This document shows, in pieces, positions 19,106 to 43,097 of a stretch of 64,000 nt of DNA (position 1 is its first letter; each line of letters starts with the position of its first letter). The notes under the pieces were generated by a model that made no database searches, was not told the origin of the DNA, and saw nothing but the letters and a program-made list of their open reading frames with translations. The position numbers and the translations under genes were made by a program. Source of the stretch: Candidatus Enterousia sp. (GTDB lineage Bacteria > Pseudomonadota > Alphaproteobacteria > Rs-D84); contig JAZKZR010000010.1 in assembly GCA_045612805.1 (NCBI GenBank), positions 195,136 through 259,135 on the forward strand. The letters are read 5' to 3'.

Positions 19106-19209
19106 CGGTGGTTTCAACCGTGACGACGAGATCCCGCGTTTCCGCGGAATGACGTCACCACTAAAAAATCCTTGCATCGGCAAACAAACTGTGTAATAAT
19201 GCCCGCGTT

Positions 19210-25700: not shown

Positions 25701-28700
25701 TCAATGGCGATGGAAAATGTGTTTATACAATCCAGTGTGATTTGTGTCAAACATCTGGGGTATACGGTTGTTATACCCATGATCCTATTTCCAACGGCCA
25801 GTTCACAATAACCGACGACCAATATGATGCTGATGCCCTTGAGGGTGTGTCCTGTACCCCGGCTGATTTCTGCGTCACATTAGATAGTAACGGCGGCAAT
25901 GGCGGTATTGGAACATTGTGTGAAACATATGGCGAAGGGTGGCATAAATCTGGTTCAGAAGGTTTTATTGATTCTTTGGAATCCAGTGACCTACCAACAT
26001 GGTTAAACAACAGCCAGGTGTTTGCTGGTTATTGGACTTTGCAAAACGGCGGCAATATGGAAATTGATCCAGAAGGGGCAATTGTGGCAAACAATACCAT
26101 ACTGGAAGATAATAACCAAACATGGTACGCGCATTGGGGCGATGGTACCGGATACACGGTTACATTCGAATGCGATGGTGATACTCAGTGGACCGAAACT
26201 CTACTGGTGTACCCAACACAAGACATAGAGGTTCCACAAACACAATGTTTGCGCACTGGTTATACATTTACCAATTGGGTGGATACGCCCCATAGTGTCA
26301 CAATTCCTGCAAACAACCAAACATTCAATTGGACCGGCGAATTTAATTCTGTCCTAACCCCAGATTGGACGGCGAACACTTATAGTGTGACCTATAAATG
26401 CGGTGAAGACGATACCGGTGTCACGGATCCGACAGCGGCGGAATTCGACCATGATTACTATGTGCAACCGCATAACGATAATATTGTTCGTTGTGCCGAA
26501 CCAGAAGGCAAGGTATTTGTAAAATGGTCATTAAATACGACACCAGACGCAACCTTGATTGCAGAGGATCAAAATACCACATGGACATATGATATATCCA
26601 ACCCAACCTTTACCGCCCAATGGACGGACGGGTGTTATGAGGTAACTTTCAATAATGATCGGCACGGTGGGCAACCTATTATCAGTACGTTAAAATTTTA
26701 CAAACAAGGCACGAGATGGTACGCCAATACCGAGGCAAAGTGTGATGGCGATTCTATAAGTCCAAGTGTGGCAGGTATGTTACCGACCAAGGAACATGCA
26801 AGCTTTATCGGATATGACGATGAGGATGGAACAGACCAACGTATTTTTGATGGCAATGGTTATCCTACGTATGCCGCATCCAGTTGGACAATTACGAGGG
26901 CTACAGTTCTGTATGCACAATACGATTGTGATGCTGGTTATACATTAAGTGGAACAACGTGCGTCTTGGATTCTTCGAATTTCCACACGATAACCCTTGA
27001 CAAAAATGCCGGAGAATTTTATGGCGTAGCCAGTAATCCGAATGTTTTGTACACCATAGAGGGTACAGCCCAAGCTTACACTGATGAGGGACATAATGAT
27101 CCATTCTATAGTTTGAACGAGAATGGTTTCCCCCGCAAATATGCCAAAGTGACATTCCATTATTGCGATGGCACAAACAATTCTTGCGGTAACCCATCCA
27201 CACCTGATGAAACCAAAGATGCAGATTTCACATTTAATGGATTTTATGCCACAACGTCGGCCACAGGGGATCTGTATATAGCTCAGAACGGCTATATCAC
27301 TGGGTATGGAAACATTGCGGCGGGCGCGGCCACAAGCAATGAAACATGGTATGCAGCTTGGAACGGATACGGCACGCTGGATACATCTCGTTGGCCGGTT
27401 CCTGCCCAGATCCCCAATGGTTACGCTTTTGGCGGTTGGTATACGGAACCTAAGTGCGAGGGTACACTAATGTCATCTAGCACCCAATTTACCACCCCTG
27501 ACACCGACCTTTATGCCTGTTGGTCACAGAATGTATTCACCGTCACATACAATTGCGGCATTGGTACCGGCAGCGCTCAACCAGATACACAAAATCATCC
27601 GACCACTGGCAGTAACTATACTGTTTTACCGAACGGAACTGCAAACGGTGGGGTTGTGGATTGTAACTATACTGGCCAGGGTTTCGCCGGGTGGAAATTT
27701 AGTGAAAACACCGGTGTAAACACGTATAATGCTGGGGATACAATAACATGGCAGGCCGGTTATGGCAATGAGACCTTGACCGCCCAATACAGACGCTGTG
27801 AAACAAACGAAGTCCTTGTGAACGGCGTATGTTATCCGACGTGCAGTGACACAACTTGTACGGAACCAACGTCACAGAATTCACAGAGCCATTGCCCAAC
27901 GGATCGTATCCCACCGTATCCGCATGATGAAGTGGAATGTTCATATTCATGGGACAATATTTCGGGGTATTTGGATGGTGGCGTGTGTAAATATGCAAAT
28001 GGTGACAACCAAGGGCAACCGATAAACACGGGTGTTTGCCAAGAGAGTGTTGCATGTAACGATTCTGCCTATATCTGGAATTCGGACCCGAATGTGTGGG
28101 ACTGTGTGCCGAATACGAGTATCACTTACAATGTTCAATTCAAATGCAATGAGACAGACATTGCACCTATATCTGACTATAGTTTTAGTGTAAGTTATGG
28201 CGAGAGTATAACAGTCCCGTCAGATTCAGCTTGTCAAAGAACCGGGCATTCGTATAGCCAGTGGAAAGCCACACAATACAATAATCCCGCTACACTTCCT
28301 GCGCAGGGTACTACATATCAATATCCGTGGGAACAGACCCATGGTGAAACATTCATCGCAGATTGGACAAACAACCAATATAGGATGACATTGAATGCAA
28401 ACGGTGGAACACATAATGGTTCCGATCCTGTTACTGAATTGCTAGAGGTATTTGGTCAATATTTCTATAAGAACTCTGATATGAGTTCACCGATTGAATA
28501 CTTTACCACCAATCAATTACCAACAAATGGTACCCAACATTTCGCTGGTTACATGACGGATGGCGAAGAATCTAGAACAATGTATAATCCGATTAGTGGT
28601 AACTGGAGACTAGTTCAGCCAAACATAGCAGCTAACGAAACATGGTATGCGAAATGGAGTGTTTGTAATCCAGGTCAGTATTATTCGGATGGTCAATGCA

Positions 28701-31700
28701 ATGATTGCCCAACATCACATCCAAACTCTGATCCAACAACTGCAACCTCAATGAACGATTGTTATTACAATTGCGTGACTTGTACACAGTATTGTCCGGA
28801 TGACGAAGAAGGTGTCAATGATTGTTATGACTATAGTTCCGCCGGTCTGCCACAAAATGGTCACGCTAATTATCCTGGAAATACTTGCGTCGCAAATCCA
28901 GGTCAGGAACAAAATTGTAACTATAAGGTTAGTTGTGAAAGTGGCTATCACCCAACTGAAGATCAAAAGCATTGTATCGGGGACACTTATACAATAACAT
29001 TGAACAGTCATCGTGAAACTTCTGGTTATGGCCAGTATTATGGAAACGATAGTAGCCCAGCAAACCTTTTGGCGCGTCATGGGGAAAATGGTGGCGTCTG
29101 GTATGATGCTAACAACCAAATGGTTGTCGGGGATGCTTTAACTAGCAATCCATCCAAGTATGCAAATGTGACATTAAACGGAAATGGAGGTGAAATTTAT
29201 TGGAATAACAGTTGGACCGAGCATAATGTATCAACAACCGCGGCGTTCGAATTCCAAGGATTTTTCCGGAACCAAACAGGGGCAGATAATCCATACATTA
29301 ATAATTATGGTAAACTTACCACAGACGGAGAAAGTGCGGCCCGGACATATATAGGAAATCAGACATGGCACGCACAATGGACACATGCGTGTATAACACT
29401 GCCGAATGCACAACGCACGGGATATAACTTTACGGGATGGGTATTTGGTTCTGCTATCGGTGGCACATTTGCTGGAAACGCTGGTAGCACTGTTTGCAGT
29501 AACAACGGCATGCCACAGATGGCGGATATAACGATTACTGCAACATGGGACAACGGGGCAAATTATTCTATTTTGTATGATGATAACACCAGACCATTGC
29601 ACCTTGGCCTAAATGCTAATACTATCTGTTCGCCGACTTCTTATCAGTACGGCCAAGGCGCATCTATCGGTTGTAACTTATCTAGTTATGCTAGCCTCGA
29701 CACCCACGTTGTGTTCAAGGGGTGGTGCCTTGATGCAACAACCAATAATTGTTACGACACCACTCCGACATACTACACAATACCAAACAATGCGACCGGG
29801 AATTATACATTCTATGCATGGTGGGAATGTGAGAGAGGGTATGACTTGTCAAATGGTGTTTGCGTGCCAAATGCATCTGAACTATGCCCGGCGCAATTGC
29901 CAAGCAATTCGCATGCAACCCTGGCAACGGACGTAACGCCTAATCCATCCATAAATCAAAATGGTGATTGCGTGTATACTGTTCAATGTAATTCATGTAT
30001 TAATGAAAATAGCGCGTATGATTGCTATGTCTATAGCAGTGGCAATATCAACAGTATCAACACCAATGGTCGGTTCACAATTACTGGGGCCCAAGGTACC
30101 GCCGGTCAGAATGTGTTGAATAACGTTCGTTGTGAACCGGCAACATATACCGCGGTCTATAGATGTGGCGACGGGACTCCCACCAGTCCTTACTATGATA
30201 CAGACCATATCATAACATACAATGGTTCTTATACTGTGTTACCAAACGGAAGCGATGGTGTTGTGACATGTTCAAAGGATGGCGAAATGTTCAATCATTG
30301 GACATTCAACCTTAACTCTGGGATCCAATATATTGGCGGTGAATCAATAAATCCTTGGCGGTATCACGGGTCAACCGTTCCGACATTTATGGCGCAATAT
30401 GGTCAATGCCCAGAAGACGAAGTGATTGTTGATGGTGAATGCAAGAAAGAATGTATCGTACCTTGTACATGGCAAAATTATCCGGCAAATCCGGCGCCAT
30501 GTCCAAATCCGCCGTATCCAGCAGGAACCACGTGTCATTATATCGCTGGTACTAACCCGGCCTATGGTTATCGCCCCAATCCATCTAGTCGTCTGTGTTT
30601 AGACATTGATACGGGTGAACAAGTAGAAGCACAAACATGTAATGTGGATCCGACACAAGACCCAACTTGTCCGCCACACTATCATTGGAATTCGGGTACA
30701 TTCAGTTGTGATCCGGACGTTTATACCGTTACATTAGATCCAAATAGAGAAAGTTATCAAAATAATACAATAGTCCCTGGTTCGAATAATGTTAACGAGT
30801 TGAAGGAAAAATGGGAATACGGTTGGAGCAAAGACGGGGGCTATCAATTTGCAACGGATAGTTTAATCTTGAACACAAACACCGAAGTTCCGTATTGGAC
30901 CGATGGTACGAAAGTATTTGATGGTTATTGGACCACGCCAAGTGGTGGGTATCGGATGGTTCAGGCAAATGGTTCAGTTAGTCAAAATGGTTACCAACTC
31001 TTGCCGGCCACCACTATCACAAGCGATACGACATGGTATGCACGATATGTCGACAATCCGGGGCCATTTACGGTTACGTTCAGATGTGATCAGGATGGTG
31101 CAATTCTAAATACTCAAAACCCATCTTTTGGTGATTATATTGATGTTCTGGCAGCACCGCAATCGGCGTGCACGAATCACCCTGGGGAAACGTTCAATCA
31201 GTGGAGAATTGTTGCAAATGGTATGCTTATTCCGGATTGGTATAATGGTACTTCTGGCATGTATCCGTGGCAACTTCACGAAGGTTCACAGATTGTCCCA
31301 GATTGGCGACCGGTTTACAAAGTGACATTGGATAAAGGTGCCACTGATGCGGTAAACGGGAACGTTACAAGTTTGTGGGATGCGGTTGGTATCGGTTGGT
31401 ACACAAATAGCGGTTTAACAAATGGAGTCGATTCTCTTAGCGACTCTGATTTGCCGACACGCAGTAATTACACTTTTGCTGGGTACGTTGATAGTGTATC
31501 TGGAAACCAAAGGGGTCAGTTCGGTAGTAATAATACATGGGTGTTGCCGGAAACCACCGATCTGACCAGCAATGAAACCTGGAGGGCTGAATGGAGCCGG
31601 TGCCCCGATTATAATTATTACGAAAACAATCAATGCAAAGAGTGTGATTCGAATTATCACCAAAATCCGCATCCGGTGACCCATGAGGATTGTTATACGA

Positions 31701-34700
31701 ATTGCCAGGGATATTGTCAGACATCTGGATGTACAACGGGGCAAAATCATGTTATAGGGTGTGATTATATATCAGAATCATATACTGGGTTTATACATTG
31801 GCCGAATCCCATTAATGGTCAGTGTCCAAATTCTAATGGTGTTGTTCCATCATGTGATTATTGTGTTCGTTGCGAGGATGGTTGGGTTCAGGATCCTAAT
31901 AATTGTAAGCAGTGTATAGAAGATGCTCATTTTATTGTTACGTTGAATCCGCATTTGGTAAATAATACCCAGGGAAGTTACAGTAGTCCAAGGGCACTAT
32001 ATACATGGCATGGCAAGGGTGTTTATTTGTATGAGGACTATAGCCAATATCTGATGAACGGAAACCAAAATCCGCTTGTCAGTAATCCACAGACCTACGC
32101 GACCGTAACTTTTAACTTGAATGGTGACGGGGCTTGGCTTGATTGGGAAAATCAGCGCTATACAGATCCCGTGGATATAGACGTTCCACTTACTTATCTT
32201 GGATTCTATAAATCAGAAACCGATTCAGATATGGTTATAAACACTAATCGGTATATAGAACCCGCGGGTACGCAGGCCGGTAAAACCGCCACAGCTAATT
32301 TGGAATGGCATGCGCATTGGCAACCACGGCAAATAGGAACGGTAACAGGTTCTCAGCTTCCGCAACCGTCGCGTCCAGGATTCAATTTTGTCGGATGGTT
32401 TAATACATCTGCGTCCAATGGTGGCACTCAAATATATGCGACGACGGCGGCCGCCCAGAATATGACCGTGTATGCACGTTGGGAAAAGGCAAAATATTTC
32501 GTGAATTTGGATAAAAATGGTGGTCAATGGGGTTCTGATCCTGTATATAAGTTATGGGAATTGTATGGTACCGGTTGGTCCACAGAAGAAACTGGCCCAT
32601 TTGAACGTGATTTGGTTTTGGGTGAAAGTGAGCGTCCATCATATGTGGACAACAGCAAGGTGTTCAATGGTTATTGGACCGCCAGGAACAACGGCACCCA
32701 ACAGATCCGTGCCGATGGTTCCGTTGTCGATACGACCGCAACCGTACTTACCGTGAATAATACTACATGGTATGCACAATACGTCGATAATACAAATAAA
32801 TATACTATCACATTCAGGTGCAGCGAGAATGCATCCCCGATTCGCACATATCGTGTAAGTGGTGGTGAAAGTATAACTGTTCCGGCCAAATCAGAATGTC
32901 CGAACCCAGGTTATTCATTCACGAAATGGATGGGAAATCAAGGCACAAATTTCAATGCACGAGATAGTGAATATACAGTAATATGGGAAAGTTTTTCTGA
33001 TGCAGATTTTGTTCCAAATTGGAATAATGGGGATGTGTATCATGTGACATTACTTCAAAATGATGCGGATGCACCTGGTGAAGTACAGAATTTGTATGAA
33101 AAATACGCCAGTTGGTGGGCATTGGATCAGAATAATCAGTACCCGATGACATCGTTAAGTGGCGATCAATTGCCGACCAAAACAGGTTACGATTTCGCTG
33201 GGTTTAAAACCAGAATTGGGGGATATACAAGGGGTGATTTTGACTCTGAAAGTAATGTATGGGTACCACAGTCAAATAGAGAAATAACCAATGACGAAGA
33301 ATGGGTTCCTAAGTGGACACAATGCAAACCGTATTGGTATTATGATAACGTTCAAAAGATATGCAAGGAATGTCCAGCCCCATACACCAATAACGAACAT
33401 CCAGAATCGTTGGCGGATTGCTATGATGGTCGGTGCGAGCTGCGCTGTATTGAAAGCGCGATCGAATGTCCGACCGATCCAAATGCGATTGAATTTGAAT
33501 ACAGCAATGACGTATATTCGGGAACAAATTATTATCAAAATCATTGTGTGTTGGATATATGGGTACAACAGGGCGCTCAACAAGAAGTGATACCAAGTTG
33601 TGAATGCACAATAAAAACCTGTAAACCTGGCTATCACCCTGTCAATGGTGACTGTGTTGAGTATGTCAAGACGGATATTGTGCTTAGTCCAAACGGGGGT
33701 GCGTGGGCTTCAAATGTCCCGTACGAATATAGGTACCTTTACACAATCGAAAGTACCGGTGTGTATCGTAATTCTGCAAGGACAGAAGAAATGACACCCG
33801 ACAATAACATGCCTTTACATGCAATTCCGTCGAATGGCGTGTCGATAACACTTGATGCCAATGATGGAAGCGTGACATGGGGTGGCGGAACAGGTGAGAT
33901 TCTAAATCGTAACGCTGCATTTGAATTCCTCGGGTTCTATAATTCTCAAGCCCCGGGTTTTGCGGCACCGTATATACTGCCACGGGAAATAAACGGTGAA
34001 ACATATGCCTTTATCACCACTGGTGGGCAATCAGCTGGTATGGGATACACGACAACACCACATACATGGTATGCACAATGGAATCGGTCGGTTACATTAC
34101 CCACGCCGGAACGCCAGAATTATACGTTCGTTGGGTGGACGTATAACGGGGAGTTGATATCTAATCCTTGGACGGTGCCTGGGAACACCACGAACGTAAC
34201 CTTGATTGCACGATGGACCAAGAATAATGGCACCATTGTGGCATACAAGTGTGACGATGGTGATGGTGGTATTGGTGGCACTGGTTATGATACGCTACAT
34301 CCGGCATATTTTGGTGAAAATTATAATGTTTTGCCAAACGGAATTGTAAACGGGGGTGTTGTGAATTGTTCAAAGCCGGCCAATATAACCCTGGGAAGAA
34401 GATATCATGAATTTGAAGATTGGGTATTCAGTGATGATTATGCGCATTATGATCCAGGTGAAATCAATTGGACTTTTAACGTGGATAACCCGACATTTAC
34501 TGCGAACTATGAAGAATGTCCAAATGGGTGGTATTTTGATGGTTCGTGCAAACAGTGCCCGACTGGTTATACCAGTTCTGATATAGATGCAGATAGTGCA
34601 ACCAAGTGTTATAAAACGTGCGATGTTCCATGTACACGACCGACGTCACAGTGTCCTATGAATGAAGAGGGGGTTCTTACATGCACTTATCCTAATAACA

Positions 34701-37700
34701 CATATCCGCTTGGTAAACAATATAGTGGCAGTGATGATTGCGTATATGATGGAACCGCGCCTGCTTGCGAACCGTTCACAATCATGTGCAAACCTGATTA
34801 TACGCCAGATTACTATCTTAGCACGGATACCGGAACACATTGTACAAAATTGGATCAATATGAAATTACATTGGATCAGAATGGTGGTACGGGTGGACAA
34901 GATAAAATCTATACGATTTATAATACCGGCGTATACCGTGACGCAGGACGGATTTATAGTATGACACAATACCCATTGTTAAATTTGCCATCAAAGTCCG
35001 TTAACGTAACATTTAATTCTTGTGATAATAATGATCCAAATTGTGAAGGTGCAACTGTTTGGGAAAGACCGGTTGATCTGGAGTTCAAAGGATATTATCA
35101 AACTGCATCGAACAATTCGCAATACATATATGCAACTGGATTAATCACATCAACAGGTCTGGCCGAAGGTAAGTCATATACGGACAATAATCAAACTTGG
35201 TACGCTCAATGGAATTCTGGTACAGTTGACTCCGATAAATGGCCTTTGCCGCCAACACGTCCGAGTGCGTGCGCAACATACAGTTTCCATGATTGGTATA
35301 CCGAAATAAATGGTGGGACACCGGTTTCGTATAACACACAGGTATCCGAAGATGTGACATGGTACGCCCATTGGTGCGAAAGTTGCCCGACCAGGGCAAT
35401 AGACCACGGTTCGTGCACTGCGCAAAATTGCAAGGCCGAATTTAAGTGTGACGACGGGTACGATTGGAATTCGGGTAGTTGCACTTGCACCCCAACAACC
35501 GGATTGACCCTAACATATCAACCAAATGGTGGCGTTGCGCGCAACGGTGTTGAACTTGTGCAACAAATGACATTTGAACAATCATTTACAACACTTGGCG
35601 GAAATGATATTACCATGGCGGGCAATATAAATTGTAAATGGGATACGGTATCTGGTGGTCAATTCCCATTATTAGATCACGAATATACCTATAATCAAAA
35701 TGGTAATACCGTGTTAAAAGCCCATTGGGCAGCATGCACGTGCGAGGCGGGCAATGGTGTTCAATCTTGTTCCACAAACGTTATAGATAATACCTGTGTT
35801 CCAACCGTTACGTGTCAGGGCGGATATATCCCCGTTACACCATACGGAATCAGTGAGGAATGTGGTAATAAGGTCACTGTTAGCTGCACTAAATGCCCGG
35901 CCGGAACATATCAAAATGGTAACCAATGTTCACCATGCGATGGAAACACTGTGTCCGCGGCGGGCGCAACCCAGTGCGAACCGTGTGACCCCGGTTATAC
36001 CGCCAATGCGGAACATACACAATGCGTGGGTAACCCGATCACAATCAATTGGGATGAAAACGGCGGAAATGCAATACCTGATGGTTCTTGTGTATATGGT
36101 CAAACGTTTACGTTGGCGAATGCACCGGAGCACAGCAACAGGGCTATGCAATTCCTTGGGTGGAAATTGTTTACGGGTGATAGTACTTATCCGGCCGGGA
36201 CAAACGTAATGTGTACATATGACAATGTCGGTGTTTACAGTGAAACAAGTACCAAAATCCAGGCACAATGGAACGAATGCCAGTGTTCGGATCAATTGAA
36301 TCCGCATGTGGCGTGGTGTCAGGCATGGTTTGCAGACGGCGAATGTAAGTATATGAATGGATGTGATGCCGGATACGAACCTGATCCGTTAACGGTGTAT
36401 ACCCCGGCTGCGGTATGTAAACCGAAAAATTACAATATAACATATAACTGTGGTGATGGAATTGGCATCCCAGAATATCTGACAGACAGTGCCACATTCA
36501 ATGAAAATTATACTGTAAAGGGACGTGGCACCTGTCAAATGACTGGGTTCAACTTTGCGGGTTGGAAACTCAGTGCTAACAGCCAAACTTATCAACCAGG
36601 ATATAGGTTTGAACCGTGGAATTTCACACAACAAAATCCAACCTTTACCGCACAATATAGTCAATGCGCGGCTGGCGAGGTATGGGTAGATGGCGCATGC
36701 GAACCATGTACTTGCTCACAGGATAATTGGAGTTCTGGTGTCGCATCATGTACGGCAAGTCCATCGTCGATTAGCACCTGTTCTGCGGTTGTCACATGTG
36801 AAACAGGTTATAATAATCCGCAAGGGAATTGCGATGGTGCGACATGTTCGGCCCAGTGTGACCAGATTCAATCCAATGCCATTTATGAATGTGGAATTGG
36901 TGCAACGGGAACACCGCCGGCCACGGAAACGATGAACTATGGTGCGACACACACGGTCAAAGGCCAGACAAGTTGTGCCAAATCGGGTTATACCTTTAAC
37001 GGTTGGAATTTTACTGGGACAAATAAAAATTATAACCCCGGCGCAACGGTCCAATGGAATTATGGAACGGATCAAACCTTTACGGGGAATTGGTGCGAAA
37101 ATTGCGGCAATGTTGCAAACGGAACTTGTTCACTGAATGCAACCTTCGCTGGTTCTTGTTCGTATGATTGTTCTTGTGAACCTGGATATAGACTGGTTGG
37201 TGGTGTATGTACCGCGCACCCGGTATGCGAACCTGATGATTCATTAACAATCACATATCAGCCAAATGGTGGTATGAATAATGGCGTCCTTGGGCAACCG
37301 GTGATACAAAATGTCACATATGGTGCCGGGTTTATAACCAAACCGGGAACCATATTTACCAAGGAAAACAGTATTATCACCGCATGGGATCATGTCGAAG
37401 GTGGCAATTATCCAGAATTGAATCGTTGGTATGTGTATGATACCGATATTGACACCATATTGAGTGCACATTGGGAACAGTGCACATGCACTGCGGGCAA
37501 CGGCGTGTCATCTTGTACAACAAGTTCTACAAGTGAAAATGCTTGCGCTTGTGCTGGTGAATGTGCTGCTCGTTACATAAACGGCGGTTGTAGTTGCAAC
37601 GGAACAAGTACCTGCACGCAAACTTGTACGGAATGTCCGGCCGGGTACATATCAAATGCAGATCAAACAGAATGTGTTATTTGTCCAGAAAACACGTATC

Positions 37701-40069
37701 AATCGGGCAATACTTGTGAACAGTGTCCAACTGGTTACACATCGCCGGCGGGTTCAACGTCGGTTGAAGATTGTTATAATAATCCGATATCATATACGGT
37801 GCATTATTCTTCAAACAATGGTTTGGATCAGACGGAAACTCAACCTGTTGTGTATGGGACAACGTTTACAACCCTTGGCGGAACGACATTCACGTATGAT
37901 AACCACATTATGACCCGTTGGAATAAAATAAGTGGTGGTGACTATACAGAATTGTCGCACCCATACGAATATGGTGTCCAAGAAGATACGTTCCTAAAGG
38001 CACAATGGGCAGAGTGTACATGTGCTACGGGCAATGGTGTGTCGTCTTGTACAACAAGTTCTACAAGTGAAAATGCTTGCGCTTGCACGGGCGAATGCGC
38101 CGCGGGTTATGTAAAGGGTGAGTGTTCTTGCTCTGGAAATACATGCACGCAATCTTGCACAAAGTGCGCGGATAATCAGGTTGAAATAAACGGTGTTTGT
38201 GTTGATTGCTCTTGTTCGGCCGATGGTGATGGGGTTGTTTCGGGATGCGGATTTGTATCAAACGAAAATAACGTTTGCCATTGGGGTCCAACAACTTGCG
38301 GTACAGGATACGGTAATCCTGGGGATCTTAGCTGCGATGATTCTGTACATAATAATAACTGTAGAGCAATATGCAGCCAGATTCAGTCCAATGCAATCTA
38401 TGAATGTGGGACTGGAATGGGTATTCCACCGGTTAGTGAACTTGTTGATTATGGCACACAGTATATCATCAAGGCCAATGCCGCGGTTTATGGGTGCCAT
38501 CGTGACAATTCCAGATTTGCGGGTTGGGAATTCGACGGAACCCAGAAACCATACTGGCCGGGCGATACGGTTACATGGAATTATACAGAAGATAGGCACT
38601 TCCGCGCGGTGTATTGCAATGAGTGCTTGACGGGCGATCATTGTACTTTGGACATACCTAATCCTGGTGAATGTGTGGTGACCTGTCATACAGGATATGA
38701 ATGGGATGCCAACCTGAAAAAGTGCGTGGCGAAAACATATGAAAACGGTATCACATACAAACCAAATGGTGGAACGCCAAATCAGAATTATACGCAATCT
38801 GTGATATATGATGCACCGTTCACAACGCTTGATTGGAACACGGAACATTATACCAAGGCGCACCATATCTTAAAACGTTGGGATGTTGAATCCGGTGGTG
38901 CGGGAACATTTAATGGTGGTTATGCCGCCCTTGGTACGGAATACACATATCATACGGACGGCGCAACATCGTTGTTGGCTGAATGGATAGAATGTGGTAT
39001 CAATGAAATATCATTGGATAATCAGTGTCAACAGTGCCGTTGTACCGATAATAACGCAGGTGTGACATCTTGTGAAACAAGTGCCACGAATAATGACACT
39101 TGCAGTTGTTCGGGCGAATGTGCCGCGGGGTACATAAACGCCGGTTGCAATTGCAACGGAACCAACTGCACACAATCTTGTACAAAGTGCGCAGATAACC
39201 AAGTTTCGGTAAACAATGCTTGTGAAAATTGCGTGTGCGAGAAAAACATTGATGGCATAGAGGGCATCATTTCAGGTTGCGGATTTGTGTCAAACAATGG
39301 CAATACATGTAACTGGGATCCGACAACTTGCAGATTGGGGTATGGTTATCCGGATTTGACCTGTACGGAAACCGAACATAACAATAATTGCACCGCATCG
39401 TGCACGATATGCCCGGCCGGCACATATGGCGATAATGGCATTGAATGCAAACTGTGTCCAGAAGGCAAAACATCTTTGGCCGGCGCAACATCAATAAGGG
39501 AATGCTTTATTGATCCAAACAGTTGCGCGCCGGATGAACACATCGAACACGGCGAATGTGTAAGCAATAAGCGTGCATGTTCTATACCAGATGCAACCAG
39601 TGCGGTTCGTATATGGAATCCGGCAATCGGAACATACGGCCCATGCACGGTTGAGGTTGATGGCTGTAATTCGGGTTATCATGTTTCCGGCAACGCGTGT
39701 GTCCGGGATACCTGCACCGTTGCACACGGCAGTGCCGAAAGCGAATATAGCGGTGGCCGATGGGAATGCTTTGTGACAAAGTGTGATCCGGGTTATGAAC
39801 CAAGTTCGGATTACAAGTCCTGTGTTGAATGTGCGAATCGTTATGTTGATGGCGATGTCGCGGTCAGCAGTTATGTATCCGAATGCGAAATCGCCGCATG
39901 TATGTACCAGGGTCAAAAGTATGCGTTGCAAAATGGCGAATGCGTCCCGATTTGTACCGCGGATAGGTTTACCCGTGAAGATCCGAGCAATCCAACTGGT
40001 ACAATACAATGGGATGAACGCACCAAGAAATGTATCCGAACCTGTAACCCGGGATACAAGATGTGGTAA
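19703..40069 (+). CDS. Giant (6788 aa) secreted Cys-rich mosaic protein: about 40 Listeria-Bacteroides (Flg_new/InlB B-repeat-like) units, ephrin-receptor-like (GCC2_GCC3-type) units and EGF-like Cys knots. Putative adhesin or surface fibril
   Basis: Single open frame of 20367 nt with the ribosome-binding site AGGGAGA. Signal peptide MKKFAKILGFLGFFVTVATVQIGTAWA. Recurring ...GYTFxGW...(T/L)(W/L/F)YAQ(W/Y) units. Motifs such as CPAGTYQNGNQCSPCDGNTVSAAGATQCEPC. Several hundred Cys. No LPXTG, RTX, autotransporter barrel or T9SS C-terminal domain is recognisable. Confidence 0.9.
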   Translation: MKKFAKILGFLGFFVTVATVQIGTAWADGQYCGYGYDGYYGLGREQSDCYKCAEDFNNYPNSTGGYNFSGNLCYSACSGTCIDANSSFQNGGTYGIPATSTFFVSRLNNGTQNSLLNISGLTCNNIGNYCAEVFDCGKNACSANWKTINFVDHNNTPLGTLYIVYGMIWSTQQTTQCDDCAGNSLNYAVFYPVFQTPTAPTREGYTFLGYSDSQTGGIIRIGPDHSNMYGKLNYNNATSISGISGNTITLYARYENAGCAQNYWYNSQTDECIPCAEGFTSPGGYGNQHTCTKSCSETCTQRHNSTDECAEGVTGFYSPIVPITGKEYEDDQGHCYDNNNIEILAPDNDLTEAHWCQWNCDGCKDEQCYTFVEGACEPKIWNAMYDCDDGTNVITDTNYPESYGNYIIADFSCQGQNGQTFIGWTLGSGGIVYNHDDPEHDELTWGCGHQTFKPVFEDTCYEVSFNDETNGGHPNNQNGTHGPFYKKYNDTQYNWYTNSKCTEKVNGGNPSVANNLPWKEHATFTGYYDETQNPDLKIFAGDNDTPQGGLTNDGTSWTIDGNTVLYAQYTCVEGYTPDANGDCVGDKIDVKYTCVSPVDGDEPEQHTFNDDATYGTAYPVKYVGTGSNHNVQCAFTGYELDTDYVWKLQDYSGNPDNPNGEYGPGADAGNTLLSTDWQYITTTPLTEIEFILDKSLWHLKTYNVEYRCGEIKPDADVYTDSSATYGQTYNVAGQFDPIGGNAVTVQDFLDNNCKPNGGFGAWTFQNWTFTCDGADSGPYDTNDPTFGPWTYDSNNCYFTANWAQTDFVIILDQNGGTDGNPSDYLYTRKNIGVYLDSARTLKMLPDHESNANPLTPPQKTINITIYPDSTHDGTGASFTYNGTIYGYNGANNYANIDENLDFMGYYQNILSNPEKYIDPYEGKGYITGEGIAAGKTYDENYTVPQRTWVAHWGTYELTLPSTATWNGHDFDGWECVDDEDTVVYSCGTNQSCQVTVSENITCTAQWSVACRNVLFDDTTNGEPSSPTNGGNSGRFSKVAGQAGWYQGTECAGNSYTPSVADRIPTKTNGHFIGYNTAVDGTGNEIFDEFGVVTTYGNQTWAPVDTPTLYAQYECDAPYHLDTNPNSETAGQCVACAPGTFYDPNEANPAKQCKNCNQYISDNGVAGAGAYTWTSRPPYNWSIKQCYRTCGSGVGIQETCAEVPTVSGHNEMEQFLGDCEGCTPTGKQISFYGNEFATDPNNRVNTCDANVGAINCPQGFLAGGASGANKLMAAAVDFYEDRDLNGTYEPNGKRYIVGRRIATNDVYKLDTGFVWSQVVGDAQLEGNTEGNPGTISIIYPATLAPTVADPEHHTFAGYGYPEDAPSSQVFVDNNYSLTSGSNGNASSIISFANDHSYTNMSPIIGNSSYTRNLYAQYTAADSYTLTYLCNGVETPSTDHQVTGLYVGTQFNLITPDWCTGCYEFTGWWDGSQTITPDQFTNFTWIYNSDKTFIARCAESKDKFIIYNKIPVDDVNEDGTTNNGNTYVPAEDGTPTTFTCGSEITSITGHPQLKNSDNVVIGTVIEWCTDSDLEECDSPLELQNSNCNDKNVYAKWECTDPRYHLNENKDDCVACNAGEYWDATTQKCESCSEATGGNFPYSTPGFNWSVDQCYNYCNTNLTCDDASLNGIYDGEYANCQFTKIDNTNKQIEFYGNHRTSVTACNGTDTVRYCAYGFAGCGTPNALIKPVTVQVDFKKTTNDTVGQRYIFGSRSGNGNNIDVNPSTAKIWSQIVGQGQQEQVSGGNYSYTHIIYPTYTAPAANQIGQDFTGYYYPENDGTRYVEYDLGLDATNAQSVLQDQSGSISAPRSLFAKYCSNGQEWNGSACIGTDYTVKYICGAHGTAPGEMTNTATSGQSYMVAALEGGATATCTANTDTGYVLKMNNNKPVWKFNGNDREYFTGEVINQWNFTIQSPTFTAQYDCAAGYTWNTDGTACVSISDIACPAELSENSHASLVGEPSINGDGKCVYTIQCDLCQTSGVYGCYTHDPISNGQFTITDDQYDADALEGVSCTPADFCVTLDSNGGNGGIGTLCETYGEGWHKSGSEGFIDSLESSDLPTWLNNSQVFAGYWTLQNGGNMEIDPEGAIVANNTILEDNNQTWYAHWGDGTGYTVTFECDGDTQWTETLLVYPTQDIEVPQTQCLRTGYTFTNWVDTPHSVTIPANNQTFNWTGEFNSVLTPDWTANTYSVTYKCGEDDTGVTDPTAAEFDHDYYVQPHNDNIVRCAEPEGKVFVKWSLNTTPDATLIAEDQNTTWTYDISNPTFTAQWTDGCYEVTFNNDRHGGQPIISTLKFYKQGTRWYANTEAKCDGDSISPSVAGMLPTKEHASFIGYDDEDGTDQRIFDGNGYPTYAASSWTITRATVLYAQYDCDAGYTLSGTTCVLDSSNFHTITLDKNAGEFYGVASNPNVLYTIEGTAQAYTDEGHNDPFYSLNENGFPRKYAKVTFHYCDGTNNSCGNPSTPDETKDADFTFNGFYATTSATGDLYIAQNGYITGYGNIAAGAATSNETWYAAWNGYGTLDTSRWPVPAQIPNGYAFGGWYTEPKCEGTLMSSSTQFTTPDTDLYACWSQNVFTVTYNCGIGTGSAQPDTQNHPTTGSNYTVLPNGTANGGVVDCNYTGQGFAGWKFSENTGVNTYNAGDTITWQAGYGNETLTAQYRRCETNEVLVNGVCYPTCSDTTCTEPTSQNSQSHCPTDRIPPYPHDEVECSYSWDNISGYLDGGVCKYANGDNQGQPINTGVCQESVACNDSAYIWNSDPNVWDCVPNTSITYNVQFKCNETDIAPISDYSFSVSYGESITVPSDSACQRTGHSYSQWKATQYNNPATLPAQGTTYQYPWEQTHGETFIADWTNNQYRMTLNANGGTHNGSDPVTELLEVFGQYFYKNSDMSSPIEYFTTNQLPTNGTQHFAGYMTDGEESRTMYNPISGNWRLVQPNIAANETWYAKWSVCNPGQYYSDGQCNDCPTSHPNSDPTTATSMNDCYYNCVTCTQYCPDDEEGVNDCYDYSSAGLPQNGHANYPGNTCVANPGQEQNCNYKVSCESGYHPTEDQKHCIGDTYTITLNSHRETSGYGQYYGNDSSPANLLARHGENGGVWYDANNQMVVGDALTSNPSKYANVTLNGNGGEIYWNNSWTEHNVSTTAAFEFQGFFRNQTGADNPYINNYGKLTTDGESAARTYIGNQTWHAQWTHACITLPNAQRTGYNFTGWVFGSAIGGTFAGNAGSTVCSNNGMPQMADITITATWDNGANYSILYDDNTRPLHLGLNANTICSPTSYQYGQGASIGCNLSSYASLDTHVVFKGWCLDATTNNCYDTTPTYYTIPNNATGNYTFYAWWECERGYDLSNGVCVPNASELCPAQLPSNSHATLATDVTPNPSINQNGDCVYTVQCNSCINENSAYDCYVYSSGNINSINTNGRFTITGAQGTAGQNVLNNVRCEPATYTAVYRCGDGTPTSPYYDTDHIITYNGSYTVLPNGSDGVVTCSKDGEMFNHWTFNLNSGIQYIGGESINPWRYHGSTVPTFMAQYGQCPEDEVIVDGECKKECIVPCTWQNYPANPAPCPNPPYPAGTTCHYIAGTNPAYGYRPNPSSRLCLDIDTGEQVEAQTCNVDPTQDPTCPPHYHWNSGTFSCDPDVYTVTLDPNRESYQNNTIVPGSNNVNELKEKWEYGWSKDGGYQFATDSLILNTNTEVPYWTDGTKVFDGYWTTPSGGYRMVQANGSVSQNGYQLLPATTITSDTTWYARYVDNPGPFTVTFRCDQDGAILNTQNPSFGDYIDVLAAPQSACTNHPGETFNQWRIVANGMLIPDWYNGTSGMYPWQLHEGSQIVPDWRPVYKVTLDKGATDAVNGNVTSLWDAVGIGWYTNSGLTNGVDSLSDSDLPTRSNYTFAGYVDSVSGNQRGQFGSNNTWVLPETTDLTSNETWRAEWSRCPDYNYYENNQCKECDSNYHQNPHPVTHEDCYTNCQGYCQTSGCTTGQNHVIGCDYISESYTGFIHWPNPINGQCPNSNGVVPSCDYCVRCEDGWVQDPNNCKQCIEDAHFIVTLNPHLVNNTQGSYSSPRALYTWHGKGVYLYEDYSQYLMNGNQNPLVSNPQTYATVTFNLNGDGAWLDWENQRYTDPVDIDVPLTYLGFYKSETDSDMVINTNRYIEPAGTQAGKTATANLEWHAHWQPRQIGTVTGSQLPQPSRPGFNFVGWFNTSASNGGTQIYATTAAAQNMTVYARWEKAKYFVNLDKNGGQWGSDPVYKLWELYGTGWSTEETGPFERDLVLGESERPSYVDNSKVFNGYWTARNNGTQQIRADGSVVDTTATVLTVNNTTWYAQYVDNTNKYTITFRCSENASPIRTYRVSGGESITVPAKSECPNPGYSFTKWMGNQGTNFNARDSEYTVIWESFSDADFVPNWNNGDVYHVTLLQNDADAPGEVQNLYEKYASWWALDQNNQYPMTSLSGDQLPTKTGYDFAGFKTRIGGYTRGDFDSESNVWVPQSNREITNDEEWVPKWTQCKPYWYYDNVQKICKECPAPYTNNEHPESLADCYDGRCELRCIESAIECPTDPNAIEFEYSNDVYSGTNYYQNHCVLDIWVQQGAQQEVIPSCECTIKTCKPGYHPVNGDCVEYVKTDIVLSPNGGAWASNVPYEYRYLYTIESTGVYRNSARTEEMTPDNNMPLHAIPSNGVSITLDANDGSVTWGGGTGEILNRNAAFEFLGFYNSQAPGFAAPYILPREINGETYAFITTGGQSAGMGYTTTPHTWYAQWNRSVTLPTPERQNYTFVGWTYNGELISNPWTVPGNTTNVTLIARWTKNNGTIVAYKCDDGDGGIGGTGYDTLHPAYFGENYNVLPNGIVNGGVVNCSKPANITLGRRYHEFEDWVFSDDYAHYDPGEINWTFNVDNPTFTANYEECPNGWYFDGSCKQCPTGYTSSDIDADSATKCYKTCDVPCTRPTSQCPMNEEGVLTCTYPNNTYPLGKQYSGSDDCVYDGTAPACEPFTIMCKPDYTPDYYLSTDTGTHCTKLDQYEITLDQNGGTGGQDKIYTIYNTGVYRDAGRIYSMTQYPLLNLPSKSVNVTFNSCDNNDPNCEGATVWERPVDLEFKGYYQTASNNSQYIYATGLITSTGLAEGKSYTDNNQTWYAQWNSGTVDSDKWPLPPTRPSACATYSFHDWYTEINGGTPVSYNTQVSEDVTWYAHWCESCPTRAIDHGSCTAQNCKAEFKCDDGYDWNSGSCTCTPTTGLTLTYQPNGGVARNGVELVQQMTFEQSFTTLGGNDITMAGNINCKWDTVSGGQFPLLDHEYTYNQNGNTVLKAHWAACTCEAGNGVQSCSTNVIDNTCVPTVTCQGGYIPVTPYGISEECGNKVTVSCTKCPAGTYQNGNQCSPCDGNTVSAAGATQCEPCDPGYTANAEHTQCVGNPITINWDENGGNAIPDGSCVYGQTFTLANAPEHSNRAMQFLGWKLFTGDSTYPAGTNVMCTYDNVGVYSETSTKIQAQWNECQCSDQLNPHVAWCQAWFADGECKYMNGCDAGYEPDPLTVYTPAAVCKPKNYNITYNCGDGIGIPEYLTDSATFNENYTVKGRGTCQMTGFNFAGWKLSANSQTYQPGYRFEPWNFTQQNPTFTAQYSQCAAGEVWVDGACEPCTCSQDNWSSGVASCTASPSSISTCSAVVTCETGYNNPQGNCDGATCSAQCDQIQSNAIYECGIGATGTPPATETMNYGATHTVKGQTSCAKSGYTFNGWNFTGTNKNYNPGATVQWNYGTDQTFTGNWCENCGNVANGTCSLNATFAGSCSYDCSCEPGYRLVGGVCTAHPVCEPDDSLTITYQPNGGMNNGVLGQPVIQNVTYGAGFITKPGTIFTKENSIITAWDHVEGGNYPELNRWYVYDTDIDTILSAHWEQCTCTAGNGVSSCTTSSTSENACACAGECAARYINGGCSCNGTSTCTQTCTECPAGYISNADQTECVICPENTYQSGNTCEQCPTGYTSPAGSTSVEDCYNNPISYTVHYSSNNGLDQTETQPVVYGTTFTTLGGTTFTYDNHIMTRWNKISGGDYTELSHPYEYGVQEDTFLKAQWAECTCATGNGVSSCTTSSTSENACACTGECAAGYVKGECSCSGNTCTQSCTKCADNQVEINGVCVDCSCSADGDGVVSGCGFVSNENNVCHWGPTTCGTGYGNPGDLSCDDSVHNNNCRAICSQIQSNAIYECGTGMGIPPVSELVDYGTQYIIKANAAVYGCHRDNSRFAGWEFDGTQKPYWPGDTVTWNYTEDRHFRAVYCNECLTGDHCTLDIPNPGECVVTCHTGYEWDANLKKCVAKTYENGITYKPNGGTPNQNYTQSVIYDAPFTTLDWNTEHYTKAHHILKRWDVESGGAGTFNGGYAALGTEYTYHTDGATSLLAEWIECGINEISLDNQCQQCRCTDNNAGVTSCETSATNNDTCSCSGECAAGYINAGCNCNGTNCTQSCTKCADNQVSVNNACENCVCEKNIDGIEGIISGCGFVSNNGNTCNWDPTTCRLGYGYPDLTCTETEHNNNCTASCTICPAGTYGDNGIECKLCPEGKTSLAGATSIRECFIDPNSCAPDEHIEHGECVSNKRACSIPDATSAVRIWNPAIGTYGPCTVEVDGCNSGYHVSGNACVRDTCTVAHGSAESEYSGGRWECFVTKCDPGYEPSSDYKSCVECANRYVDGDVAVSSYVSECEIAACMYQGQKYALQNGECVPICTADRFTREDPSNPTGTIQWDERTKKCIRTCNPGYKMW
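23030..25260 (+). repeat. Internal duplication of a roughly 260-300-aa super-module within the giant gene
   Basis: YECDAPYHLDTNPNSETAGQCVACAPGTFYDP...LYAQYT (about 23030-23940) parallels ECTDPRYHLNENKDDCVACNAGEYWD...LFAKYC (about 24480-25260), with the same domain order. Confidence 0.6.
35500..39520 (+). repeat. C-terminal tandem array of roughly 180-aa modules (B-repeat unit plus a CTCxxGNGVSSCTTSSTSENACAC...TQSCTxC Cys-rich unit), with a 41-nt identical DNA tract shared between copies
   Basis: At least five modules. The stretch tcttgtacaacaagttctacaagtgaaaatgcttgcgcttg at about 37510 is identical to the one at about 38047. The corresponding protein segments are near-identical. Confidence 0.65.
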
Positions 40070-40081
40070 GGATTATAACGC

Positions 40082-40924
40082 ATGAGTGGGGGGAGAATTC
40101 AGTTAAAAAAATCAAACCAAACGCCCAAGAATGATATTTTTGGGCGTCTTGGTGATTTTTCTGTTCGTATAATTCAATCCATTTATAACAATTGTAAATT
40201 TGTGTGTCGTGTCTTTCGCGCAATGTATTATGTATTGCGTGGGCGTGGTGACATGCGGCGTGTTGATTTATGGGTTGAAATTGATGCCGCGGGTCTGCGC
40301 GCGATTCCAATTGTATGTTTGATAAGTTTTATGATTGGTTTAATCATCGCGTTTGTTGGACATATGCAATTGGCAATGTTCGGTGCGGAAATTTATGTCG
40401 CGGCATTGGTTGCAATTTCCATGGTGCGTATTGTCGGCGCAATTATGACAGGAATAATTATGGCCGGCCGCACGGGTGCATCATATGCCGCGGAAATTGG
40501 TTCAATGCGCGCGAACGATGAAATCGATGCACTTAAAACCATGGGAATTTCGCCGATGGAATTTTTGGTTTTGCCACGTGTAATCGCATTAACCATAACT
40601 ATGCCATTACTAACCATAATCGCGGATGCGGTCGCCATATTGGGTGGCATGTGTGTTGCAATATCAATTATGAATGTTTCAATTGCGGAATATTGGCAAA
40701 CGACACTAAATTGGATAAGTTTCAAGAATTTTGCGGTAGGTGTTTTTCATGGATGGATTTTCGGTTGGGTAATCGCGATAACCGGATGTGCGTGTGGATT
40801 GCGTGCCGAAAAAAATGCGGCCGGAATAGGGCGGGCGACAACGCGCGCGGTGGTTATGGCGATTGTTGGGTGCGTTGTTGCGACGGCGATACTAACACTT
40901 GTTTTTAATTGGTTTGGAATATAA
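40082..40924 (+). CDS. mlaE: Mla/MCE ABC transporter permease
   Basis: Polytopic permease with the MlaE-type loop ...AAEIGSMRANDEIDALKTMGISP. It starts 12 bp after the giant gene's stop. Confidence 0.8.
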   Translation: MSGGRIQLKKSNQTPKNDIFGRLGDFSVRIIQSIYNNCKFVCRVFRAMYYVLRGRGDMRRVDLWVEIDAAGLRAIPIVCLISFMIGLIIAFVGHMQLAMFGAEIYVAALVAISMVRIVGAIMTGIIMAGRTGASYAAEIGSMRANDEIDALKTMGISPMEFLVLPRVIALTITMPLLTIIADAVAILGGMCVAISIMNVSIAEYWQTTLNWISFKNFAVGVFHGWIFGWVIAITGCACGLRAEKNAAGIGRATTRAVVMAIVGCVVATAILTLVFNWFGI

Positions 40925-41688
40925 TGCGAAAAAGTGAAAGAATTTTTATTAGTGTCGAAAATCTAACGCTGGGGTACGGCGGAAATGTCGTTGTGGAAAA
41001 ACTGAATTTTAATATAAACGCGGGCGACATTTTTGTAATTATGGGATTGTCGGGCTGTGGCAAAAGCACGATTATGCGTTCGATTGTTGGACTAAATAAA
41101 CCGATGTTGGGTCGTGTGATTGTGGGCGGCCAAGATTTATGGGCAATGTCGGAAAGTGCGCGCGAAAAAATAATTGAAACGTTTGGGGTGTCGTATCAAA
41201 GTGGCGCGTTGTTTTTATCAATGACCTTTGGTGAAAATGTTGCATTGCCAATGGAAATGAAAACAAATATGTCGCGTAAAGAGATAAATAAAGAAGTTCA
41301 CAAAAAACTTCAACTTGTTGGGCTTTCCGGATACGAAAATGTTTATCCCGCGGACGCAAGTGGCGGCATGATAAAACGTGCGGCACTTGCGCGGGCGCTT
41401 GCACTAAATCCGCGTGCACTCTTTTTCGATGAACCGTCGGCGGGACTTGACCCGGTGCGTTCGCGGCAATTGGATAATTTAATCGTGGAAATAAATAAAA
41501 AACTTGGCACGACGATTGTAATGGTGACACATGAATTGGCATCGATTCTGTCAATCGCAACAAATTCTGTTTATATTGGAAATAAAACTGTGCTTGCCAC
41601 CGGGGCACCGAAAAAGATTTTACAAACAACAAAAAACAAAGAGATTATCGAATTTCTAACACGTGAAACAAAGGGGGGCAAAAAATGA
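40924..41688 (+). CDS. mlaF: Mla/MCE ABC transporter ATP-binding protein
   Basis: Walker A GLSGCGKST, signature LSGGMIKRAALARALAL, Walker B LFFDEP. The ATG overlaps the mlaE stop (TAATG). Confidence 0.8.
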   Translation: MRKSERIFISVENLTLGYGGNVVVEKLNFNINAGDIFVIMGLSGCGKSTIMRSIVGLNKPMLGRVIVGGQDLWAMSESAREKIIETFGVSYQSGALFLSMTFGENVALPMEMKTNMSRKEINKEVHKKLQLVGLSGYENVYPADASGGMIKRAALARALALNPRALFFDEPSAGLDPVRSRQLDNLIVEINKKLGTTIVMVTHELASILSIATNSVYIGNKTVLATGAPKKILQTTKNKEIIEFLTRETKGGKK

Positions 41689-42461
41689 AACAACCATCGC
41701 GGCGCGCAATCGGCGGATTTATATTCTTGGTTATTTTAATTATTATCGGGACGGTTCTGTTCTTTTTCGGACGACGATTTGACCGTAATTATATAACGCC
41801 GGTTTTATTCTTTGAAGGTTCGGTCAAAGGCCTATCGGTTGGTTCAAATGTTTACTTTCGTGGCGTGCCGGTTGGACGTGTGGAAAAAATACAACTTATC
41901 CCGAATAACGAAGATAAAATTATTATCCCGGTTTATGTTCGCATCGATCCGCGTATGACGGCGCATGGCGAAATGTCGCGTTCGGAAATGGCGGGTTGGA
42001 TAAACGATTTGATACGGCACGGATTAAAGGGCAAATTGCAAACGCAAAATGTTTTAACCGGCCAAATGACAATCGAACTTGATTTTTATCCGAAATATCC
42101 ACCGCGTTTCCAGGCGGAAAAGTACGGAATCGAAGATATTGAAATCCCAACTGTGCCGTCGATGTTTGATGAAATTTCGCAAAACCTTGAAAAAATTCCG
42201 TTGTCAGATATATCAACAAACGTGAACGGCGTTTTGCAACAGTTGCACGACGATATGCCGGCACTGATGCGCCAATCGACCGAAGCGGTGGTTAGCATAA
42301 ATCGCCTTGCGGATTCGATTGCGGGGCCGGGCACGACAACGATGTCGGACTTTAACAAAATGATTCGCGACGTTAGCGAGGCCGCACGTGCGGTGTCGCG
42401 GCTTAGCGATTATTTGGAACGCCACCCAGAGGCATTATTAAAAGGAAAAGGAGGATATTAA
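41685..42461 (+). CDS. mlaD: MCE-domain periplasmic substrate-binding protein
   Basis: N-terminal TM helix followed by an MCE fold (…YFRGVPVGRVEKI…). It overlaps the mlaF stop. Confidence 0.75.
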   Translation: MKQPSRRAIGGFIFLVILIIIGTVLFFFGRRFDRNYITPVLFFEGSVKGLSVGSNVYFRGVPVGRVEKIQLIPNNEDKIIIPVYVRIDPRMTAHGEMSRSEMAGWINDLIRHGLKGKLQTQNVLTGQMTIELDFYPKYPPRFQAEKYGIEDIEIPTVPSMFDEISQNLEKIPLSDISTNVNGVLQQLHDDMPALMRQSTEAVVSINRLADSIAGPGTTTMSDFNKMIRDVSEAARAVSRLSDYLERHPEALLKGKGGY

Positions 42462-42462
42462 A

Positions 42463-43068
42463 ATGAAAAAATATATTTGTTTGATTGTTGCAACATTTGC
42501 GATTTCTGCCTGCACGCTTTGGCGGACCAGTGAACCCGCGCGGTTTTACACATTTACCGCGCCCGATGTGTCGCAAATTCGCGGGCCCGCACATGTGACA
42601 ACCGTTGCAATTGAAAATGTCACCGTGCCACAATCAATCAACCGTCCGCAAATTGTTATGAAATACAAAAATTCGAACATGATGATGGTGTCTGAATTTG
42701 ACCGTTGGATTGATGAACCCGCGAATTCGTTACCGGTTGTGATTTCTGAAAATATGAATATGTACGCAAAAAACATTAGCGCGCGACCAACAAAAAATTC
42801 AGTTGAGGCGCGTAACGCAAAATACATTTTGGCGGTGGACTTTGTCCGGTTTGAAACAGAAATCAATGGCAAAATCACAATATCGGCATGGTGGACACTA
42901 ACCAACAATCGTGGTGATATAGTCGCACAAAAGAAAATGACACAAACCGCGGACACACCGGAACTGGACGCAAGTTATCCAAACTATGACGCAATCGTCG
43001 CGGCGCAGAGTAAATTGCTTGCACGCCTGTCATATAAAATCGCCGACGTGATAAGTGAATTGAAATAA
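42463..43068 (+). CDS. PqiC/YmbA-like ABC-transport auxiliary lipoprotein
   Basis: Lipobox FAISAC. About 200 aa, directly after the MCE gene (1-bp spacing). Confidence 0.6.
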   Translation: MKKYICLIVATFAISACTLWRTSEPARFYTFTAPDVSQIRGPAHVTTVAIENVTVPQSINRPQIVMKYKNSNMMMVSEFDRWIDEPANSLPVVISENMNMYAKNISARPTKNSVEARNAKYILAVDFVRFETEINGKITISAWWTLTNNRGDIVAQKKMTQTADTPELDASYPNYDAIVAAQSKLLARLSYKIADVISELK

Positions 43069-43071
43069 AAA

Positions 43072-43097
43072 AAATTCCCCAAACGGGGAATTTTTTA
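43072..43097. terminator. Bidirectional rho-independent terminator (end of the mla operon, convergent with rne)
   Basis: ttcccc-aaac-ggggaa followed by tttttt, with an A-run on the other side. Confidence 0.6.

Follow-up and report, generated by a model that had tools for sequence, protein, structure and literature searches.

The streptococcal alpha C/Rib and mycoplasma Vlp/Vsa surface proteins are encoded by near-identical tandem DNA repeats that frequently change in copy number, and in Anaplasma msp2, Borrelia vlsE, Neisseria pilE/pilS and Treponema tprK antigenic variation proceeds by segmental gene conversion. Here we analyze a giant gene for a modular, cysteine-rich protein in a 64-kb stretch of DNA (hereinafter the window) on contig JAZKZR010000010.1 from an alphaproteobacterium of the ruminant gut, an uncultured relative of Candidatus Enterousia. 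The part of this gene that codes for the C-terminal quarter of its 6,788-amino-acid (aa) product, for which export is predicted, carries two identical copies of a 41-nucleotide (nt) tract in neighboring modules, termed c1 and c2 below. We propose that this tract is probably a gene-conversion patch between the two modules and that the array at large varies by cassette swapping and short patches. Processes of this kind, in which the modules of a repetitive surface-protein gene are shuffled and undergo conversion within the gene, are already known.

With the alpha C/Rib and Vlp/Vsa systems the window gene shares in-frame repeated modules and recombination between repeats. In contrast to those arrays, its units are approximately 56% identical and irregularly spaced, and the number of the tract pair is fixed in the four genomes that possess it. 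Since Tandem Repeats Finder also returned zero rows across 30–42 kb of the window, we rejected a tandem array of the alpha C/Rib type. The likeness to msp2, vlsE, pilE and tprK lies in short non-reciprocal patches between related sequences and in mosaic alleles; however, in the window donor and recipient would both be expressed modules of one open reading frame (ORF), and the gene shows no sign of programmed high-frequency switching. No silent donor cassettes were found within the 64-kb window, where the intragenic tract is the sole exact repeat of at least 18 nt that involves the gene; hence, antigenic variation from donor cassettes within the window was likewise rejected. A diversity-generating retroelement was discarded because no reverse transcriptase was found among the scanned window ORFs and the differences between paralogous modules are of all base types. 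Pfam profiles detected no element of this kind, recombinase or invertase among these ORFs.

The two copies of the tract lie in frame, 534 nt (178 codons) apart, inside the same ORF (Table 1). They match exactly over all 41 nt, as reported in the initial annotation, and no comparable matches were obtained in 100 shuffles of the sequence. Around them, the DNA of c1 and c2 is 75% identical in the 36 nt directly 5′ of the tract, 67% in the 90 nt 3′ of it, 56% in the half coding for the B-repeat and 56% across the whole unit with the tract excluded. Thus, the flanking identity of about 75% initially assigned to this region describes the immediate 5′ side and not the remainder. The anomaly resides in the synonymous sites: among codons for identical amino acids in the c1/c2 alignment, 0/13 differ inside the tract as compared to 34/66 outside it (Fisher p=3.7e-4) and 20/31 in the near flanks alone (p=5e-5). 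A permutation test on the longest identical-codon run between c1 and c2, which avoids the post hoc choice of the tract, gave p=0.009. The tract also uses GCT, the rarest alanine codon of the giant gene, twice, and the probability of 13 identical codons arising by independent draws from the codon usage of the gene is 2.5e-7. Given this probability and the shared rare codons, we rejected convergence in codon usage as the cause of the identity. RNA folding in and around both copies was no better than in shuffled sequences (z = -0.4, -1.2, +0.9). The synonymous-site anomaly favors gene conversion between repeats, one of the two sources initially suggested for the tract, as its best explanation. 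The other suggested source, a recent duplication, does not agree with units that are about 56% identical outside it.

We delineated a species complex by the DNA identity of the downstream mlaF-mlaD-auxiliary gene segment (94–97%), which comprises the window and the loci L001, L002, L003, L021 and L022; a further locus, L007, is 99.9% identical to L001. Both tract copies, always at the 534-nt spacing, are present in L001 (a rumen contig from ENA; mismatches 0 and 0 in the two copies), L002 (from another rumen study; 1 and 0) and L003 (the GTDB metagenome-assembled genome (MAG) RGIG2769 from goat omasum; 1 and 1). In a codon alignment of the resulting eight copies, the synonymous flank differences that separate copy 1 from copy 2 are fixed in 4/4 genomes, and the tract itself shows 3 changes in 328 nt, all of them private substitutions that have escaped homogenization. 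Moreover, the distance between the paralogous copies is the same or nearly so within and between genomes: 0.200 versus 0.213 in the 5′ flank, 0.383 versus 0.383 in the 3′ flank and 0.018 versus 0.018 in the tract. This equivalence suggests that c1 and c2 are old paralogues and that the patch is inherited rather than being continually renewed. Accordingly, as far as these sequences tell, c1 and c2 have not undergone concerted evolution since the patch was laid down.

Other parts of the array differ markedly between strains. In L021 and L022, recovered from two JGI metagenomes, colinearity with the window ends at position 37278 and resumes at 38384; between these points they have about 1,150 nt of unrelated DNA coding for CTCDADNCTTYATD-type knots and three B-repeats, as compared to two in the window-type allele. 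The tree of the flanking DNA conflicts with the distribution of this cassette, as L003 is nearest to L021 and L022 and yet has the tract pair. Further upstream, L001 and L002 have a YKPNGG-type module in place of the window module at about 36447–36869 (the first CG-type B-repeat). Two haplotypes exist for the interior of the c1 B-repeat, and L003 possesses its own haplotype of the next B-repeat. These blocks begin and end at conserved junction motifs (ITYxPNGG, AHWEQCTC and QSNAIYxCG), and every allele arrangement was observed in at least two independent assemblies.

Short patches are also seen beyond the window. In the second knot of L022, a patch of some 40 nt is identical to the type of its first knot, down to a 9-nt deletion, whereas L021 and L004 have another sequence in their orthologous second knots; the patch in L022 is an independent and recent conversion between its adjacent knots. 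In-frame exact tracts of 24–80 nt between paralogous modules were found in eight other loci with giant genes (L006, L008, L009, L010, L012, L016, L021 and L022), suggesting that short-patch exchange is a recurrent property of the gene family. Giant genes of other species harbor in-frame identical tracts that are much longer. L006 has a true short tandem array at 10813–11421, with in-frame identical tracts of 51–74 nt at a 183-nt period, while L009 displays identical tracts of 80, 53 and 43 nt at 1311-nt spacing (8054–9573). A 68-nt identical tract recurs at 1590-nt spacing in L010 (6395/7985), and L016 also has an in-frame tract (55/307). The tracts of L006, L009, L010 and L016 point to duplications or conversions more recent than that of the window.

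The region is prone to assembly problems, as was anticipated in the initial annotation. In L002, a scaffold gap of 10 N lies at the start of the array (3714–3723), and in L001, the contig of which starts within the array, a 28-nt length difference relative to L002 shifts the frame inside the array (633–960). The frameshift and the gap could reflect either assembly trouble or real pseudogenization. Attempts to recover additional copies or strains returned little: scanning JGI metagenome contigs with an exact degenerate pattern of the tract yielded 0 matches and hence no further copies or junctions, a homologue search with the c1–c2 segment retrieved one unrelated fragment only, and exact-sequence look-ups of the window MlaE, MlaD and auxiliary lipoprotein, made in search of more strains, found none on record.

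The reading of the initial annotation, ongoing recombination between repeats, would make the tract an active substrate, with unequal crossing-over between its copies adding or removing 178-aa units and thereby generating continuing size or antigenic variation. At 41 nt the tract is longer than the minimum usually quoted for exchange by RecA, its copies are spaced in frame, the surrounding region is polymorphic among strains, the assemblies of relatives break within the array and short patches recur across the family. Nevertheless, each of the four genomes with the pair has exactly two copies, 534 nt apart, and in none was a deletion or expansion product seen at the tract; the alternative allele is a different cassette rather than such a product; and the metagenome scan furnished neither extra copies nor junctions. 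Together with the unhomogenized private substitutions and the equal paralogue distances, these observations make continuing exchange at the tract unlikely. The view of the array as a site of copy-number variation therefore survives in part: the array is indeed polymorphic, as evidenced by the cassette of L021 and L022, but unequal crossing-over at the tract has left no product in the four genomes with the pair, where the copy number is fixed at two. That purifying selection on the nucleotide sequence itself, for instance as an RNA or DNA element or a translational signal, has kept the tract identical is more improbable still. This would account for the low divergence among its orthologous copies; however, the 3′ flank of c2 diverges just as little between orthologues (0.011 per site) although it differs from that of c1, the tract is wholly missing from L021 and L022 and other alleles have identical tracts at different positions.

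It is also very improbable that the identity arose by chance, as a run of matching codons in paralogues whose peptides are conserved. Both copies encode the same peptide, SCTTSSTSENACAC, and the first and second codon positions are consequently constrained anyway, but the longest-run permutation, the value of (32/66)^13 = 8e-5 per starting position and the rare codons common to both copies all speak against chance. We assign the lowest probability to an assembly artefact, namely a collapse or chimera between repeats or between co-occurring strains. The gap, contig end and frameshift in the arrays of relatives and the placement of mosaic boundaries at conserved motifs, points at which a de Bruijn graph may jump from one strain to another, would be in keeping with an artefact, whereas four independent assemblies, which differ in study and host, show the tract pair with its spacing, each arrangement of the alleles was found independently at least twice and the 20-kb ORF is intact. 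The original observation is real and statistically sound, with the anatomy that accompanied it being overstated and its interpretation half right.

We therefore favor a short-patch non-reciprocal recombination event, i.e., gene conversion, between two adjacent, old and diverged paralogous knots, of which the 41-nt tract would be the footprint. Such a conversion may be dated to the last ancestor shared by at least four of the sampled genomes, or to a time slightly earlier, with the patch probably decaying since then by ordinary mutation. The array as a whole probably evolves further by additional short patches and by replacement of whole module cassettes with breakpoints at the module-junction motifs, resulting in strain-specific mosaics. 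Homologous recombination of the RecA type acting on the conserved junction sequences is a plausible enzymatic route, and diversifying selection may be the reason for the mosaicism. Certain points weigh against this interpretation. The putative direction and date of the conversion rest on four genomes, and the region is covered by only six genomes of the species complex, all of them MAGs or metagenome assemblies from short reads, where conserved motifs of this kind are favored sites for chimeras between strains. Furthermore, orthologous tracts diverge by 0.012–0.024 per site, close to the minimum for the flanks (0.011–0.097), which leaves room for some constraint at the nucleotide level.

The initial description of five or more tandem modules, each approximately 180 aa long, makes the array more regular than it is. 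A profile of the B-repeat plus its knot matches in four places only (aa 5268–5399, 5848–5975, 6027–6152 and 6345–6493), and an NGG-type B-repeat profile alone in five, with spacings of 178, 402, 183 and 317 aa. Three CG-type B-repeats and other knots are interleaved among the NGG-type units, and the middle two are the only adjacent units in the array. The true periodicity is that of a loose super-repeat of about 500–580 aa, represented by the repeat family D4 with spacings of 1740 and 1500 nt.

Table 1. Coordinates, in the window, of the giant gene, its C-terminal modules, the 41-nt tract and the genes downstream.
Feature	Position	Strand	Description
Giant gene	19703..40069	+	Single uninterrupted ORF; 6,788 aa, modular, 5% cysteine overall
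Module 1	35504..35899	+	NGG-type B-repeat (aa 5268-5347) and knot CTCEAGNGVQSC
NGG-type B-repeat 2	36038..36286	+	aa 5446-5528, followed by a different knot
Two CG-type B-repeats with knots	36434..37096	+	aa 5578-5653 and 5725-5798
Module c1	37244..37627	+	B-repeat (aa 5848-5929) and knot CTCTAGNGVSSCTTSSTSENACAC; AlphaFold model and 2y5p match
Strain-variable cassette	37279..38383	+	Contains both tracts; breakpoints at the ITYxPNGG and QSNAIYxCG junction motifs (junction repeats D4, D5)
Tract copy 1	37511-37551	+	Exact 41 nt; encodes SCTTSSTSENACA plus bases 1 and 2 of the following Cys codon
Two CxxCPxGTY-type cysteine repeats (GCC2/GCC3- or TNFR-like)	37628..37780	+	Sub-threshold PF23091; weak fold matches
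Module c2	37793..38158	+	B-repeat (aa 6031-6107) and knot CTCATGNGVSSCTTSSTSENACAC
Tract copy 2	38045-38085	+	Exact 41 nt
CG-type B-repeat	38390..38617	+	aa 6230-6305
Module 4	38744..39181	+	YKPNGG B-repeat (aa 6348-6433) and knot CRCTDNNAGVTSC
Family-defining C-terminal domain	39500..40066	+	About 190 aa, cysteine-rich, EGF-string-like; ends in CIRTCNPGYKMW
mlaE, mlaF, mlaD and auxiliary-lipoprotein genes	40082..43068	+	Begin 12 nt after the stop codon of the giant gene

The giant protein has, as judged by eye, an N-terminal Sec-type signal peptide (about aa 1–27). The repeated domain of every module is about 75 aa in length and matches the B-repeat models of Pfam and NCBIfam: Flg_new (PF09479) exceeds its cut-off of 27 bits in four segments of the protein (41.7, 28.1, 36.6 and 60.6 bits), and TIGR02543, the sole match in an NCBIfam scan, scores 39.2 bits against a cut-off of 20.95. 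An in-house B-repeat profile counted roughly three dozen B-repeats in the protein, a figure that is approximate because the relaxed iterative profile drifted into cysteine-rich segments. An AlphaFold model of one module (aa 5846–6026) has a predicted local distance difference test (pLDDT) score of 93.7, and in a Foldseek comparison its N-terminal part resembles the InlB B-repeat 2y5p_D with a probability of 1.00 and a TM(target) of 0.69. The cysteine-rich rod of this module displays a weak fold likeness to the cysteine-rich domains of TNFR, CaSR and EphA2 (E >=0.018). At the profile level, PF23091 (19.5 bits versus 33.2) and cEGF (20–22 bits versus 26.6) remain below threshold, no profile for GCC2_GCC3 or TNFR-like repeats surpasses its curated cut-off in the giant protein, PF07699 appears only in the distant hits P0008 and P0009 and a search of PDB sequences gave no match. 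The C-terminal domain is modeled as strings of EGF-like hairpins (pLDDT 70), with weak similarity to Pfs25 and TNFR. A β-barrel or membrane anchor was rejected for this domain on the strength of that model, the pLDDT of which is only 70.

In terms of domain content, the InlB-type B-repeat surface proteins share with the window protein both the profile matches (Flg_new, PF09479; TIGR02543) and the modeled B-repeat fold. However, the window protein alternates B-repeats with cysteine-rich knots, belongs to a Gram-negative alphaproteobacterium, lacks a leucine-rich-repeat internalin domain and a GW or LPXTG anchor and is approximately 10 times longer. Predicted disulfide-laddered β-hairpin rods and CxxCPxGTY motifs recall the EGF strings of Pfs25, the domains of TNFR, CaSR and EphA2 and the GCC2_GCC3 repeats of the Giardia variant-specific surface proteins (VSPs), but all matches of the window sequence to these eukaryotic-type ectodomains are below the family cut-offs and the similarity in fold and profile is weak. 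The window protein, moreover, is bacterial, bears a Sec signal peptide and lacks a transmembrane anchor or CRGKA tail. Giant genes have also been described in uncultured, partner-dependent bacteria such as the Omnitrophota (bioRxiv 10.1101/2023.11.21.568195). The likeness consists in a very large repetitive exported protein from a lineage that is likewise uncultured and presumed to rely on other cells (PMC12306168 for Rs-D84/Enterousia); by contrast, the window protein stems from another phylum, has another domain set, in which no enzymatic domain was detected, and at 6.8 k aa falls short of the tens of thousands of residues reached there.

Database homologues of the giant protein are few, all unnamed or labeled 'hypothetical protein', and come from ruminant and other gut MAGs only, the hosts being labeled Alphaproteobacteria or Candidatus Enterousia. 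The family and its setting are undescribed, and we define it here as the Enterousia-group giant cysteine-rich protein family. The window gene displays its traits: an approximately 190-aa C-terminal domain ending in C[IV]RTC[NK]PGYKMW, a body of B-repeats and knots and mlaEFD genes downstream. Three contigs of MAG RGIG7505 (L016, L017 and L018) each carry a gene ending in the family C-terminal domain, suggesting that some species have several giant-protein paralogues. The window itself codes for a second large protein (56421–60125, + strand; 1,234 aa, 4.5% Cys), which belongs to no Pfam family and is devoid of the family C-terminal motif.

Downstream of the giant gene, no terminator-like site or hairpin is found before 43069–43096, which follows the fourth gene of the mlaEFD-auxiliary set. 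The linkage of the giant gene to mlaEFD is kept in L001–L006, L009, L011–L013 and L020–L022 and persists in relatives whose Mla proteins are only 60–75% identical, its conservation despite this divergence being suggestive of a functional unit. The 600-nt region directly upstream of the giant gene contains a hairpin-rich element of about 120 nt, two copies of which (19039–19157 and 19399–19519) flank a tRNA-Met gene (19210–19286); they share an exact 67-nt core and a second block that is 88% identical. An A-rich run (19604–19633) precedes the start codon, and a simple scan found no sigma-70-like promoter upstream of the gene. Elsewhere in the window, a 288-aa protein with a signal peptide (61654–62520, − strand) contains a near-perfect 237-nt (79-codon) tandem duplication with the motif TTEKNSLVGAINEVN; its repeats at 61877/62114 and 62006/62243 share exact tracts of 128 nt and 44 nt. 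This duplication is far more recent than the flagged 41-nt one. A Pfam scan of the plus-strand ORF that overlaps this gene (61625–62719), and of that ORF only, gave no match.

Taken alone, the 41-nt tract is an ordinary signature of intragenic gene conversion, but it marks giant B-repeat proteins, cysteine-rich and eukaryote-like, that form a family not described before; the locus is thus of moderate interest, with a known process in an undescribed family and setting. The giant protein evolves fast relative to its neighbors, being 52–54% identical between the window and L003 as compared to 93–100% for the flanking proteins. The swapping of modules offers a handle for strain typing and a warning for the assembly and annotation of such MAGs. 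We also considered, as an unlikely speculation, that the junction motifs (ITYxPNGG, AxWxxCxC and QSNAIYxCG) and the short identical patches might act as built-in recombination linkers that shuffle the cassettes of a 20-kb surface-fiber gene, which would be co-transcribed with an MCE/Mla-type lipid transporter in a genome-reduced, partner-dependent gut alphaproteobacterium and provide it with a hypervariable 'attach-and-feed' apparatus directed toward host or partner cells. The Rs-D84/Enterousia lineage is reported to have genomes under about 1 Mb and a predicted lifestyle as an obligate symbiont or parasite (PMC12306168). If the genome of the window host is similarly small, the giant gene alone would amount to about 2% of it. 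The product of this gene, which may be a surface adhesin or fiber, is the obvious candidate for the molecule that contacts the partner.

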